A DNA stretch of 64,000 bases from Escherichia coli (GTDB lineage: Bacteria; Pseudomonadota; Gammaproteobacteria; Enterobacterales; Enterobacteriaceae), in assembly GCF_050920415.1 (NCBI RefSeq), contig NZ_CP169309.1; one strand, 5' to 3'. The translations under genes and the position numbers were made by a program. Below the pieces are notes generated by a model. It saw nothing but the letters and a program-made list of their open reading frames with translations, had not been told where the DNA came from and did not search any database. Positions 36,548 through 38,517 of this stretch are shown piece after piece. Within the stretch, counting starts at the first letter, position 1. Each line of letters starts with the position of its first letter.

Positions 36548-36756
36548 TGCAAACCAAGACATGTGTAACTGGTGATGTCGATCTGAAACCTTGCCCGTTC
36601 TGCGGAAATCCGGAAGTACAACTCATTGAGGTGAAATATTTTCTGGATGGCGATGATGGTTATTACGTCGCATGTACTTGCTGTAACGCAAACCAGATTC
36701 CTGATTCGAAAGAACGTGCTGTTCATGACTGGAACCAGCGCGAAAACGCGGATTGA
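36544..36756 (+). CDS. Lar-family zinc-ribbon protein (restriction alleviation-like)
   Basis: 70 aa with CPFCG...CTCC zinc-ribbon pairs. Confidence 0.6.
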   Translation: MMQTKTCVTGDVDLKPCPFCGNPEVQLIEVKYFLDGDDGYYVACTCCNANQIPDSKERAVHDWNQRENAD

Positions 36757-36773
36757 CGGCGAGTAGGTACAAA

Positions 36774-37433
36774 ATGATCCGCAACCAACATATTGATTCT
36801 GCAATTTCGGGACGTTACACTGTTCCTGCACCTTATAAAGCGGGTGCCGGGGGTCGCAGCCCGGAATTGCATACGGCGATATATGACGCGCCAGCGTCTT
36901 TTTTATCGTCCGCGCTCACGCACGCCAGAATTATGGTGGGCTGGGCAGGGGAGCCGAAAGGCTCGCCGGTTTCCGTATGCGCCGGTACTGCGAACCCTGT
37001 TCAGTTCACCACCCATGAGTTTCGCAGCTCCGGTGGTGGAAGTTATCCATTGCATACGGAGGCTGCCATCATGGCTACAGTCCCAACTTCCCCATACCTG
37101 AAAATCGAAGTCGTCAACGGCAAAGCTGTTATTTTCTCCCTGCATGTTGCCTGCCACTTTAAGCGCATGCACCAGAACATCGTCGACAAAATCGAGTATC
37201 TGAACTGCTCGCGTGAATTCTTCTCCCGTAATTTCATACCGGGTACTTACCACGTGTATGGCGATTCCCTGCGTGGTTATTACATCACCCTTGATGGCCT
37301 GATGATGCTTCAGCTTGGGTTAAGTCTGCGCACAATGCGGTACTACGAGAGCTGTATTGAAGCATTCCATGAGGCTGAAACCAACCTGAATCACACTGTT
37401 TTCCGTCGTAATCAATGGGAGGTGCGCCCATGA
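36774..37433 (+). CDS. Rha-family phage regulatory protein, paralog 1
   Basis: MIRNQHIDSAISGRYTVPAPYKAGAG...; Rha-like core (VVNGKAVIFSLHVACHFKRMHQNIVDKIEYL); ends ...WEVRP. Confidence 0.65.
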   Translation: MIRNQHIDSAISGRYTVPAPYKAGAGGRSPELHTAIYDAPASFLSSALTHARIMVGWAGEPKGSPVSVCAGTANPVQFTTHEFRSSGGGSYPLHTEAAIMATVPTSPYLKIEVVNGKAVIFSLHVACHFKRMHQNIVDKIEYLNCSREFFSRNFIPGTYHVYGDSLRGYYITLDGLMMLQLGLSLRTMRYYESCIEAFHEAETNLNHTVFRRNQWEVRP

Positions 37434-38287
37434 TTCGCCAACATATTGATTCTGCACTTTTGGGACGTTACACTGTCTCTGCACCTTATAAAGCGGGTGC
37501 CGGGATTGGCGTCCTGAAATTCAATATAGAGCATAACCGCGCTCATGCGGTTTTTTCGTGTCATGAGCATTGCTACGCCCAAATTATGGTGGGGCGTGCA
37601 GGGGCATCGCAAGATGCGCCGGGTTCTATGTTGACCGGTTACGCCAACCCTGTACGTCTCACCACCTCTGTGATTGGCGTCCCATGTGGTGAGTTCTTTG
37701 AATTCAACATAGGGGCTGTCACCATGACTACTCTCCCAACCCTCTCTCAACCTGAAATTGCGATCGTTGATGGTCAGGCTGTTACATCTTCTTTGGCTGT
37801 TGCTGACTTCTTCTCTAAACGTCATGACGATGTTCTGAAAAAGATCCGCATTTTGGATTGTTCTCCAGAGTTTTGTGCCCGCAATTTTGCGGAGACATCA
37901 ATTTTGGTACACCAGCCCAACGGCGGTACTCGCAAACTTCCTTGCTACCACATCACCCGCGATGGCTTCGCGTTCCTGGCAATGGGCTTTACTGGCAAAC
38001 GTGCAGCCCGGTTCAAAGAGGCATACATCAACGCCTTTAACCAGATGGAGAAGAATTTATCTGGTGCTGACGCGGTTGATATGTCAGCTGTTGCACGAAA
38101 CGCCAGAGGCGTATACCTGCATTTGCGTGAAATCCATCAAATCTGGATAAGCCAGCTTTATCCAATGCTTAAGGCCGTTGAGTCACCGCTGGCTGGCAAA
38201 CTGTACGACCGTGTAGGTGATGCTGTTTTTGGTGCTGCACTTGTTGATTCCAGACTGAATGGTTCTGACAAGGAGGTGCGCCCATGA
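37430..38287 (+). CDS. Rha-family phage regulatory protein, paralog 2
   Basis: MIRQHIDSALLGRYTVSAPYKAGAG...; Rha-like core (IVDGQAVTSSLAVADFFSKRHDDVLKKIRIL); ATGA-coupled to paralog 1; ends ...KEVRP. Confidence 0.65.
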   Translation: MIRQHIDSALLGRYTVSAPYKAGAGIGVLKFNIEHNRAHAVFSCHEHCYAQIMVGRAGASQDAPGSMLTGYANPVRLTTSVIGVPCGEFFEFNIGAVTMTTLPTLSQPEIAIVDGQAVTSSLAVADFFSKRHDDVLKKIRILDCSPEFCARNFAETSILVHQPNGGTRKLPCYHITRDGFAFLAMGFTGKRAARFKEAYINAFNQMEKNLSGADAVDMSAVARNARGVYLHLREIHQIWISQLYPMLKAVESPLAGKLYDRVGDAVFGAALVDSRLNGSDKEVRP

Positions 38288-38517
38288 TCCGCCACATCGT
38301 TAATTCCCTGTATCACCGATACAACCGTTGCCCCCGGGTGGGGCAGTGGTTCACCACCAGCAACGGCCACGTTCTGCGGGTTTGCCTGGTCAATACAGAA
38401 AGCCAGAAGGTTGTCTGCCAGGTTCAGGGACGTACTCATACCCTGAGTTATCCGCTGGTGGCGTTTCAGTCCGGAAAAATGTTTAAACGCCTGGGAGGTG
38501 GCTATGCGTCCGTCTGA
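38284..38517 (+). CDS. Small protein (77 aa) sharing the MIR- start and the junction sequence of the Rha paralogs
   Basis: ATGA-coupled to paralog 2 through the same GGAGGTGCGCCCATGA junction. Confidence 0.45.
   Translation: MIRHIVNSLYHRYNRCPRVGQWFTTSNGHVLRVCLVNTESQKVVCQVQGRTHTLSYPLVAFQSGKMFKRLGGGYASV

Follow-up and report, generated by a model that had tools for sequence, protein, structure and literature searches.

What makes two neighbouring genes of an Escherichia coli lambdoid prophage begin and end alike: a duplicated protein, or something else carried by the same DNA? The question is raised by positions 36774-38517 of the window, by which we mean the whole stretch of 64,000 nucleotides (contig NZ_CP169309.1, assembly GCF_050920415.1) that was analysed. 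In the early-right operon, between Lar and orf77/O, ORF1 (219 aa, ATG 36774 to TGA 37433, plus strand) is followed by ORF2 (285 aa, ATG 37430 to TGA 38287, plus strand). The two translations start MIRNQHIDSAISGRYTVPAPYKAGAG and MIRQHIDSALLGRYTVSAPYKAGAG respectively, both end in EVRP, and a 77-aa ORF comes next, all as the original prediction had read it from the sequence. RefSeq calls such ORFs 'ash family protein', and in Stx and other lambdoid prophages the "Rha/Ash" genes adjoin cI, with a function that has been called unknown (PMC8951638). Our analysis indicates that the locus is very probably a tandem of two heterologous IsrK/C4-gated Rha cassettes, that is, a known RNA switch in a stacked arrangement. 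This is the best explanation on the evidence of the RNA families, their folds, the covariation, the complementarity of cognate as against non-cognate elements, the copy number and the generic linker.

Results

Two units and a shared linker

The protein-coding features and the joints between them are as follows.

37071..37433, plus strand: Rha1 coding sequence, short form of 120 aa; Rha-domain protein, short and diverged
37724..38287, plus strand: Rha2 coding sequence, short form of 187 aa; Rha domain with a C-terminal extension
37418..37440, plus strand: cassette linker 1, GGAGGTGCGCCC-ATGA-TTCGCCA; Shine-Dalgarno sequence, Rha1 stop overlapping ATG, 5' edge of module 2
38272..38294, plus strand: cassette linker 2, GGAGGTGCGCCC-ATGA-TCCGCCA
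38284..38517, plus strand: orf77, conserved phage protein of 77 aa; matches phrog_1153 over its full length (E = 2e-43)

The same junction indeed chains ORF1 to ORF2 and ORF2 to the third ORF: the 16-mer GGAGGTGCGCCCATGA is exact at both joints and has exactly two copies in the window (37418 and 38272), where 0.01 would be expected by chance. The conserved linker extends over 23 nt (37418-37440 against 38272-38294, 96% identical), and both copies can be read as a Shine-Dalgarno sequence within the EVRP codons followed by an ATGA overlap of stop and start, in agreement with the proposed position of the ribosome-binding site. The near-identical 5' repeats expected of units 1 and 2 are likewise recovered by nucleotide alignment, with 62 of 66 positions identical (94%; 36785-36850 against 37438-37503), and beyond the repeat identity drops to 54%. 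The third ORF is real as well, but the kinship suggested by its MIRH start does not hold, MIRH being the 3' half of the linker and the protein being unrelated to the other two (phrog_1153). An Rfam scan gave no match in orf77, and there is no third Rha/Ash unit; in most relatives orf77 lies 3' of the cassette array and 5' of an O-like replication gene.

Both ORFs contain the Rha-type core claimed for them. Phage_pRha matches aa 122-202 of ORF1 and aa 119-208 of ORF2, the match of Rha1 being the weaker one: Rha1 scores 28.3 bits with PF09669 (E = 2.7e-6), 37.8 bits with TIGR02681, under its curated NCBIfam cut-off of 45.95, and E = 3e-57 with phrog_995, whose C-terminal part it lacks. Rha2 scores 93.2 bits with PF09669, 89.8 bits with TIGR02681 against the same cut-off of 45.95, and E = 1e-102 with phrog_821. 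The two proteins are 38% identical (E = 4e-22). Their Rha-homologous parts begin at the internal ATGs 37071 and 37724, behind Shine-Dalgarno sequences that lie within the C4 targets described below, and this ATG and its Shine-Dalgarno sequence are invariant in the module alignment. Leader AUGs are present inside C4 at 36933 (module 1, in frame with Rha1, giving a possible long form of 166 aa) and at 37586 (module 2).

RNA elements under the shared start

What, then, occupies the DNA upstream of the two Rha starts? In each unit we find the following elements.

36793..36821, plus strand: putative PisrK-1 promoter; -35 TTGATT 36793-36798, 17-nt spacer, -10 TACACT 36816-36821
36828..36904, plus strand: IsrK-like sRNA 1; Rfam RF01394, 58.8 bits, gathering score 50
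36853-36859 and 36868-36879, plus strand: IsrK-1 decoy/target elements a1 (GTCGCAG) and b1 (TGCATACGGCGA)
36885-36898 plus T6, plus strand: IsrK-1 intrinsic terminator
36929..37016, plus strand: C4/CI-type antisense RNA 1; Rfam RF01695, 83.3 bits, gathering score 45
36970-36981 and 36988-36994, plus strand: C4-1 pairing elements b' in the loop (UUUCCGUAUGCG) and a' in the junction (CUGCGAA)
37021..37062, plus strand: C4-1 target sites; a2 37021-37027 (TTCGCAG), b2 37051-37062 (TGCATACGGAGG)
37446..37474, plus strand: putative PisrK-2 promoter; TTGATT 37446-37451, 17 nt, TACACT 37469-37474
37481..37557, plus strand: IsrK-like sRNA 2; Rfam RF01394, 61.9 bits, gathering score 50
37506-37512 and 37521-37532, plus strand: IsrK-2 elements a1 (TTGGCGT) and b1 (TCAATATAGAGC)
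37535-37552 plus T run, plus strand: IsrK-2 terminator
37582..37669, plus strand: C4/CI-type antisense RNA 2; Rfam RF01695, 80.1 bits, gathering score 45
37623-37634 and 37641-37647, plus strand: C4-2 pairing elements b' (GUUCUAUGUUGA) and a' (ACGCCAA)
37674..37715, plus strand: C4-2 target sites; a2 37674-37680 (TTGGCGT), b2 37704-37715 (TCAACATAGGGG), overlapping the Rha2 Shine-Dalgarno sequence

All four RNAs, isrK and C4 in both units, thus score over the Rfam gathering threshold, and both C4 matches span the full length, 1-87. The minimum free energy structures (-46.2 kcal/mol, z = -4.6, for C4-1; -46.0 kcal/mol, z = -5.1, for C4-2) are the Rfam fold, a long closing stem around two hairpins. 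The -10 element of the putative PisrK-1 ends 6 nt upstream of the IsrK-1 5' end, in a position equivalent to that of the Gifsy-1 isrK promoter, and across 63 unique modules the hexamers are near-invariant (TTGATT 57/63, TACACT 59/63, 17-nt spacer 61/63). The PisrK candidates are absent from the list produced by a consensus promoter scan because just 8/12 consensus positions match. It is with this promoter-like TTGATT-17-TACACT and the first sRNA hairpin, not with a protein domain, that the 94% repeat coincides. Over all aligned nucleotides the two units have a mean identity of 72%, which is distributed very unevenly: 94% in the promoter and hairpin 1, 54% in the remainder of isrK, 38% in the spacer, 69% in C4, 56% in the leader and 59% over the opening 90 nt of Rha.

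Covariation and a pairing code

The pairing elements fit one another within each unit. In module 1, a' is complementary to a1 at 6/7 positions and to a2 at 7/7, and b' to b1 at 11/12 and to b2 at 12/12; the corresponding counts in module 2 are 7/7, 7/7, 12/12 and 11/12. The b2 elements, as read from the sequence, hold GGAGG or AGGGG 8 nt upstream of the Rha ATG, and the GGAGG of Rha1 (37058-37062) is itself part of the C4-1 target. Predicted duplexes between C4-1 and its targets reach -10.5 (a) and -16.7 (b) kcal/mol, and those between C4-2 and its own targets -10.3 and -12.1 kcal/mol, where C4-1 gives -4 to -8 kcal/mol and pairs off register. Taken together, cognate duplexes form in register at -10 to -17 kcal/mol, and non-cognate pairings form off register at -4 to -10 kcal/mol.

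The same pairings are maintained among related modules. In 44 distinct modules, pairing in the C4 fold together with a'-a2 and b'-b2 amounts to 96.8%, against 38-44% with slid partners, and double changes occur at 27 pairs of the fold and the C4-target helices. Within the C4 stems themselves we find double changes at 4 pairs in helix 4 and 4/5 in helix 5, with 99.9-100% of cells paired. For a1-a' and b1-b' the figure is 94.6%, against 34-45% when slid. In nearly all modules a1 matches a2, b1 approximately matches b2, and all are complementary to a'/b'.

The identity of the elements nonetheless varies widely, with at least 10 a alleles, at least 18 b alleles and at least 28 combinations among the related modules; as these relatives were collected by a pattern from the C4 of this lineage, distant modules are under-represented in the sample. 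The two modules of the window differ in both elements. Since their a and b sequences are entirely different, each RNA pair should address its own Rha gene only, and we predict two switches without cross-reaction, each controlling its own Rha gene. Whether identical codes are avoided within arrays is a separate matter: none of 16 pairs is identical, which is not significant (null probability 0.24), and a shared a element is seen twice against 5.3 times expected, in a biased sample.

RNA locus or protein domain

The original prediction took the shared MIR..QHIDSA..GRYTV..APYKAGAG for the N-terminus of a protein. On this account the 219- and 285-aa ORFs would be real proteins, a true Ash domain fused to Rha, tandemly duplicated and translationally coupled along the chain. 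The account can draw on the Pfam family Phage_ASH (PF10554), which matches both ORFs (63.3 bits, E = 3e-17, aa 15-107 of ORF1; 46.5 bits, E = 5e-12, aa 14-108 of ORF2), on the RefSeq annotation, on the Shine-Dalgarno sequence and ATGA overlap that open each downstream unit, and on a frame that is free of stops in 61/63 modules. However, the stretch in question is the translated promoter, IsrK sRNA and C4 RNA, with strong RNA covariation, and it shows almost no third-position signal. The third-codon-position excess is 0.95-1.15x in the RNA region and 1.45-1.67x in the Rha part, with its onset at the Rha ATG, and the entropy ratio of position 3 to positions 1 and 2 is 0.95 in the Ash region against 1.45 in Rha. 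One-step codon changes fall on the three positions as 141/136/159 in the Ash region, against 277/248/438 in Rha; their synonymous fraction is 0.30 and 0.40 respectively, with 0.21-0.25 in the off frames. (We used one-step changes instead of the ratio of distinct amino acids to distinct codons, a coding test that we discarded, as it separated the frames alike in the RNA region and in poorly aligned Rha.)

Moreover, compensatory changes in the C4 stems lead to radical amino-acid changes, the best-conserved block is promoter-like, and at the 5' edge of other loci homology sets in at the -35 element, with no homologue led by an ATG. What the Pfam family itself matches in P4 is an obsolete 'cI' ORF lying over the CI RNA and no characterised protein, and the identities of 72% between the units and 38% between the Rha proteins speak against a recent duplication. 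On the Rfam matches, the covariation and the codon-position tests together we reject the protein-domain reading of the N-terminus, and we regard the account of two real Ash-Rha proteins as highly improbable. P4 epsilon, a derepression protein to which the literature assumes the 'Ash' family to be homologous, was considered as its founder, too, and rejected (BLASTP E = 12; epsilon belongs to PF25738, not PF10554).

A reading frame kept open

The IsrK/C4 reading of the region does not by itself account for its open frame. Across the RNA region the other frames contain 2 to 4.6 stops on average, while the Rha frame has zero stops in both halves of the region in 61/61 modules. The AUG within C4 (AUUAUGG) lies 135, 138 or 141 nt upstream of the Rha AUG in 62/63 modules. 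The triplets of the b alleles are stop-free in the Rha frame in 16/16 cases and in the other two frames in 7/16 and 9/16; as 58% of possible 8-mers are stop-free in the Rha frame, the chance of the former is 0.582^16 ∼ 2e-4. Because the Rha frame is kept stop-free, it seems to matter that the region is translated, at least in part, and a purely non-coding account is incomplete. The RNA region combines a pairing constraint with an open reading frame, under little constraint at the level of amino acids.

How could both be at work? The RNA switch might operate on internal transcripts from the isrK promoter, while on upstream transcripts, from pR or the preceding cassette, ribosomes would start at the linker ATG or the C4 AUG and follow the Rha frame. 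They would then melt the terminators and C4, which would spare the replication genes from polarity and/or yield extended Rha isoforms, like eta/kil of P4. The nested genes of P4, reportedly described by Forti et al. in 1999, count in favour of such dual use, as do the absence of stops, the spacing of the C4 AUG and the b-allele triplets, together with the Shine-Dalgarno sequence and ATGA with which every second-position module opens. In Gifsy-1, moreover, orf45 overlaps the C4 equivalent; it is translated, and anrP translation depends on it (PMC4825925). On the other hand, the corresponding allele test in the isrK half is weak (0.908^16 = 0.21), and the lineages are not independent. The in-frame upstream extensions of other loci (58-370 codons), which we discarded as fusion proteins, have translations that look like those of shadow ORFs, and lambdoid N antitermination could carry transcription past the terminators with no need of translation. 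We therefore hold dual use to be a serious possibility, though one on which we would not yet rely.

Copy number and origin of the array

Related prophages allow the comparison of copy number that the original prediction had called for, and it does vary. Between the flanks ORF6N-Lar and orf77, one module is present in the related loci L017, L117, L066 and L126 and two in the window, L002 and L012; three are found in L001, with the same downstream orf77 and replication genes and another upstream flank (Rha, BRO-N). The linker is generic: in relatives it closes other cassettes too, and in L117 and L066 it is found at the end of small genes that are unrelated. Among complete E. coli genomes, ∼43% (2356 positive genomes) carry some form of the IsrK/C4 locus, with up to 8 modules per genome.

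An array made by duplication and module swapping had been proposed, and of this the cassette array and the swapping stand. A recent tandem gene duplication does not, since it needs high identity along the whole unit, while the mean is just 72% and segments go down to 38%, with Rha proteins only 38% identical. By their sequences, the units are heterologous cassettes with different predicted RNA specificities, joined by the generic linker.

Might module 1 be a functionless, degenerating duplicate, and the array neutral mosaic debris? The score of Rha1 under the TIGR02681 cut-off and its missing C-terminal part could be taken in this sense. We think this very unlikely, however, because the short Rha1-type protein recurs with an intact frame and 88-95% identity in five relatives (L002, L012, L017, L066, L117), the module 1 type also stands alone (L017, L126), and its RNA elements are intact and self-complementary (7/7 and 12/12).

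Discussion

Thus, we propose that each cassette runs from a promoter through an IsrK-like sRNA with its own terminator and, by read-through, a C4/CI-like RNA, to a2/b2 over the ribosome-binding site of a Rha gene. By analogy with P1 immI, P4 and Gifsy-1, C4 would use b' of its loop and a' of its junction to bind a2/b2, and would thereby keep Rha from being translated. In IsrK these a/b sequences recur as a1/b1, and IsrK should therefore pair with C4; its binding, in cis or in trans, would lift the block on Rha, again if the known systems are a guide. We infer the promoter activity, the RNA processing and the direction of regulation, and likewise the role of Rha1 and Rha2 as antirepressor-type regulators. 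The cargo is Rha-type here and the characterised cargoes (AnrP; Icd/Ant; Kil/Eta) differ, and the roles of the Rha proteins are therefore putative. Recombination at the 23-nt linker, with its Shine-Dalgarno sequence, stop/start overlap and ATGATYCGC, would add, remove or swap cassettes.

More speculatively, a and b may act together as a combinatorial RNA address code, of at least 10 x 18 alleles, which defines 'RNA immunity groups' of co-resident or superinfecting prophages. Stacked codes that do not cross-react would then provide several separately addressable antirepressor-type outputs, or immunity towards several groups, and the cassette would be dual-coded, with selection keeping the frame open, upstream transcripts being translated and internal ones acting as RNAs. 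We offer this tentatively.

For annotation, 'ash family protein', PF10554 and the PHROGs phrog_995, 821 and 3960 include a translated IsrK/C4 RNA locus, and at least one study took PF10554 as a marker of P4 epsilon, which PF10554 does not match. Once the Rha/Ash genes are seen as RNA-gated cassettes with a readable code, prophage cross-talk in polylysogens becomes directly testable. The region is also a clean case of an RNA-pairing constraint under which a reading frame is kept open.

Several known systems come close, one of them being Gifsy-1 of Salmonella. There, G28/G31 of IsrK pair with the downstream C162/C159, as proven by compensatory mutants (Hershko-Shalev et al. 2016, PMC4825925), and IsrK supplied in trans switches on the translation of the antirepressor further downstream (PMC4825925). 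Counting by eye on the Gifsy-1 sequence, this helix corresponds to a1:a' here. With isrK-orf45(STnc1160)-anrP the window shares the layout, as predicted from its sequence: a promoter (putative in the window), IsrK with its terminator, read-through to a C4-like RNA, a leader ORF from the conserved AUUAUGG, and then a target that contains the Shine-Dalgarno sequence, followed by an antirepressor-class gene. However, the Gifsy-1 locus is solitary and follows Q, whereas in the window two copies are stacked ahead of the replication genes, within the early-right operon; the leader ORF is in frame with the cargo in the window (138 nt) and a separate 45-codon ORF ending in AUGA in Gifsy-1; and the a/b codes differ. 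AnrP was considered as a homologue of Rha1 and Rha2, but it is ORF6N-like and we found no similarity to these Rha-type proteins.

The immI operon of phages P1 and P7, with its c4 antisense RNA, icd and ant, was reportedly described by Citron and Schuster in 1990. As in the window, C4 carries a' and b', a1/b1 lie upstream and a2/b2 over the downstream ribosome-binding site, and both match Rfam RF01695. The heteroimmunity of P1 and P7 takes its specificity from a few covarying bases. P1 has one module with Icd/Ant as cargo, where the window stacks two codes in one operon, and to our knowledge no terminated sRNA of the IsrK type has been described as an activator in P1.

In P4, the Rfam isrK and C4 families match seqA and CI as they do here, the translated region of the window can be aligned to the old P4 'cI' ORF over a stretch that takes in the ...EAAIMAT... 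at which the downstream gene begins, and both have nested in-frame starts 3' of the RNA. The P4 RNA is the primary immunity system and acts by ending transcription of the replication operon prematurely, with Kil/Eta as cargo. In contrast, a CI-type protein repressor is present in the window (34494-35189), and it is Rha genes that the RNA modules would gate.

Linkers at the module boundaries of lambdoid phages are said to have been reported in the context of modular evolution by Juhala et al. in 2000 and Clark et al. in 2001. The linker studied here resembles them in being a short conserved Shine-Dalgarno sequence plus ATGA overlap that flanks heterologous genes at mosaic joints; what differs is that the same 23-nt linker flanks repeats of one kind of regulatory cassette, in arrays of 1-3. 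The switch itself is thus already known, from Gifsy-1 IsrK, P1 immI and P4 immunity, while here it is stacked, with codes that are predicted not to cross-react.

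Results

Two known IsrK/C4 RNA switches are stacked in this part of the window, each predicted to gate a gene of the Rha family. The original prediction described an array of Rha-like paralogs sharing a protein N-terminus, and its three ORFs, junctions and repeats all lie in the window where it placed them. The repeated junction, GGAGGTGCGCCCATGA, has just two exact copies in the 64 kb, where 0.01 would be expected, and comparison of the window with itself gives a conserved stretch of 23 nt, which we call the linker. The near-identical 5' direct repeats agree at 62 of 66 positions, identity being 54% beyond that, and the Rha-type core of both long ORFs is borne out by a Phage_pRha match in their C-terminal two thirds; in profile searches the N-terminal third of both matches Phage_ASH (Pfam PF10554). 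The central premise, that this third is a shared protein N-terminus, fails, since Rfam identifies the region as IsrK and C4 RNAs and the RNAs covary.

Features of the array and its surroundings (window coordinates except the last line)
34494-35189, minus strand: cI-like repressor gene, first in the early-region order of the prophage
35317-35616: cro/YdaS-like gene, after the cI-like gene
35693-36547: ORF6N/KilAC antirepressor-like gene, after the cro/YdaS-like gene
36544-36756: Lar, directly preceding the two-module array
36774 (ATG) to 37433 (TGA): ORF of 219 aa
36816-37095: Ash/IsrK-C4 translation, module 1
36828-36904: IsrK sRNA 1, full length, Rfam 58.8 bits
36929-37016: C4 antisense RNA 1, full length, Rfam 83.3 bits
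37071 (ATG): start of the Rha-homologous part, unit 1 (MATVPTSPYLK...)
37430 (ATG) to 38287 (TGA): ORF of 285 aa
37469-37753: Ash/IsrK-C4 translation, module 2
37481-37557: IsrK sRNA 2, full length, Rfam 61.9 bits
37582-37669: C4 antisense RNA 2, full length, Rfam 80.1 bits
37724 (ATG): start of the Rha-homologous part, unit 2 (MTTLPTLSQPE...)
38284 (ATG) to 38517: ORF of 77 aa (orf77)
3' of the array: orf77, then an O-like replication gene, a DnaC-like gene and DnaB
8168-8584 of phage P4 (L123): Ash/IsrK-C4 translation

The Rfam gathering scores are 50 for IsrK and 45 for C4. Both IsrK RNAs have a terminator hairpin and a T run at their 3' end, and both C4 RNAs adopt the family structure (fold z-scores -4.6 and -5.1). 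The near-identical 66 nt contain a promoter-like TTGATT-17 nt-TACACT, separated by 6 nt from the 5' end of IsrK, and the first IsrK hairpin; among 63 unique related modules, TTGATT is present in 57, TACACT in 59 and the 17-nt spacer in 61. The Pfam Ash match (aa 15-107) covers exactly isrK, C4 and the C4 targets. GGAGG or AGGGG stands 8 nt before each Rha ATG, and ATG and Shine-Dalgarno are invariant in the module alignment.

To obtain these relatives, 120 IMG/VR loci were retrieved with a C4 5'-strand pattern; nhmmer found 144 module copies in them, and the 97 full-length copies yielded the 63 unique modules that were aligned. In each module an element a1 in IsrK matches a2 in the leader, both being complementary to a' in the C4 junction; b' in the C4 loop is likewise complementary to b1 and to b2, which approximately agree with each other. 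These elements vary between modules, with at least 10 a alleles, at least 18 b alleles and 28 combinations. Over 44 distinct sequences, pairing in the C4 fold together with a'-a2 and b'-b2 reaches 96.8%, compared with 38-44% if the partners are slid by 1-3 columns, with changes on both sides in 27 pairs; for a1-a' and b1-b' the figures are 94.6% and 34-45%. In the window, module 1 has a = CGCAG and b = GCATACGG, and module 2 has a = GGCGT and b = CAACATAG, with b1 = CAATATAG pairing via G-U; b2 overlaps the Shine-Dalgarno in both. Computed cognate duplexes reach -10 to -17 kcal/mol in register, cross pairs -4 to -10 kcal/mol off register. The two stacked codes are thus different and self-consistent, and are predicted not to cross-react.

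The array as proposed stands in its cassettes, linker and variable copy number, and falls in its shared protein N-terminus. Nor is it a recent duplication, the units being 72% identical in nucleotides and the Rha proteins 38%. Between ORF6N-Lar and orf77 there is one module in L017, L117, L066 and L126 (the 5' region in L126 being 100% identical to window module 1) and two in the window, L002 and L012; L001 (E. coli O121), with a different upstream flank (Rha, BRO-N) and the same downstream flank of orf77 and replication genes, has three, so that related prophages carry one to three modules per locus, as anticipated. The linker ends the Rha gene in many single-module loci, and in L117 and L066 the small, unrelated genes that separate Rha1 from orf77 also end in it. 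Of the 82 loci in the IMG/VR sample, 14 have at least two full modules. A module of the window lineage is found in 2356 of 5426 complete E. coli genomes, at up to 8 places per genome, and most of this two-module array in 84. None of 16 module pairs within arrays was identical in both a and b, which in so small a sample is not significant (P = 0.24).

Other arrangements were also seen. In L010 (7993-8680), L070 (3111-3798) and L088 (minus strand), a second module, partial and far more diverged (profile positions 73-322, 66 bits), lies only ~369 nt downstream of the first, so that the RNA modules are adjacent with no Rha gene between. In L013 (3379-4082) two full modules with different codes lie 390 nt apart without a Rha-length gene between, and one frame is open across both. 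In L006, L020, L023, L059 and others, a conserved stretch ~60 nt upstream of the module, ending ...GTTATTCTGCTTTCAGTGAAG(G/C)... just before the -35 (translated ...VILLSVK...), is common to several otherwise different upstream contexts, and a GTG aligns with the ATG of module position 1; the stretch may be a further regulatory element or start codon.

The window holds a lambdoid prophage within the E. coli chromosome. The ORF6N/KilAC gene just upstream of the array is of the same class as AnrP of Gifsy-1, and the Rfam scan of the window found no IsrK/C4 module of its own for it; the prophage therefore has three consecutive antirepressor-type genes, only two of them predicted to be RNA-gated. 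Other Rfam matches are STnc490 and STnc100 downstream in the prophage (43891-44005 and 44205-44393), and MicL and C0465 in the flanking chromosome (21991-22298 and 7936-8013), which mark the host as E. coli. The O-like gene contains three to four 12-nt tandem repeats (CAGAGAATAC/CAGAGATTAC...) at 38958-39002, flanked by a hairpin upstream (38832-38864) and inverted repeats downstream (39036-39113); the tandem repeats may be iterons of an origin, like those in the O gene of lambda.

Discussion

How does an RNA locus come to read as protein? In 61 of the 63 unique modules no stop interrupts the Rha frame across the RNA region of roughly 280 nt, while the other forward frames carry means of 2 and 4.6 stops and only 2% of mononucleotide shuffles keep a given frame open. 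The AUG in the C4 5' strand, which in Gifsy-1 starts orf45, here precedes the Rha AUG by 135, 138 or 141 nt in 62 of 63 modules. Moreover, all 16 observed b-allele triplets are stop-free in the Rha frame, against 58% of possible 8-mers (about 2e-4) and 7/16 and 9/16 in the other two frames, a signal to which b' and b2, both lying 3' of the C4 AUG, contribute most. Amino-acid-level constraint on the region is weak: third-position excess is 0.95-1.15x against 1.45-1.67x in Rha, and the synonymous fraction is 0.30 against 0.40 in Rha and 0.21-0.25 in off frames. Long in-frame upstream extensions in other loci resemble shadow ORFs and were set aside as evidence. Most economically, translation of a leader would begin at the C4 AUG and run in frame into Rha, with nested starts and a peptide sequence that is itself unimportant. 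Translation may also enter at the linker ATGs (36774, 37430) when transcripts come from upstream, which could help to get past the embedded terminators that precede the replication genes.

As for the 'Ash' domain, the translation of the window region can be aligned to the obsolete ORF for the P4 'cI gene product' (E = 3e-9) and not to P4 epsilon (E = 12); Rfam C4 and isrK match the P4 CI and seqA regions, and PF10554 matches the old 'cI' ORF, whereas epsilon belongs to PF25738. RefSeq 'ash family protein' and PF10554 correspond to the conceptual translation of the IsrK/C4 (P4 seqA/CI) RNA locus, as do phrog_995, phrog_821 and phrog_3960 over their first ~100-143 positions. In the literature Ash figures in the 'Rha/Ash' proteins of Stx phages as a protein domain whose function is unknown (PMC8951638), has also been placed in the Bro network, and served in one study as a marker for P4 epsilon.

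Since the IsrK/C4 system has been described before and is very common, only four points are new: the stacking of switches whose codes are not expected to cross-react, how broad the code is, the embedding in frame, and what follows for the annotation of 'Ash'. In P1 and P7, c4 blocks the icd ribosome-binding site and so ant expression, and c4 specificity defines heteroimmunity. The nested starts of P4 eta/kil resemble the proposed leader from the C4 AUG into Rha. In the P2-like phage P88 (L124, 1513-1997), isrK and C4 lie directly upstream of an epsilon-like 'derepression protein' gene, so the same switch is predicted to gate a fourth kind of antirepressor cargo. The name 'IsrK-C4 immunity system' was already used by Barquist et al. 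2013, who reported it from P4, P1, P7, N15 and some lambdoid prophages. In Gifsy-1, IsrK is transcribed from the isrK promoter, read-through yields an inactive isrK-orf45-anrP mRNA, and IsrK in trans activates translation of orf45 and hence of the antirepressor AnrP (PMC4825925). There the processed RNA STnc1160 occupies the position of C4 in the window, and a helix of IsrK G28/G31 with C162/C159 was proven by compensatory mutants (PMC4825925). By our manual numbering of the Gifsy-1 sequence, rather than a tool alignment, this helix falls on a1 and a'.
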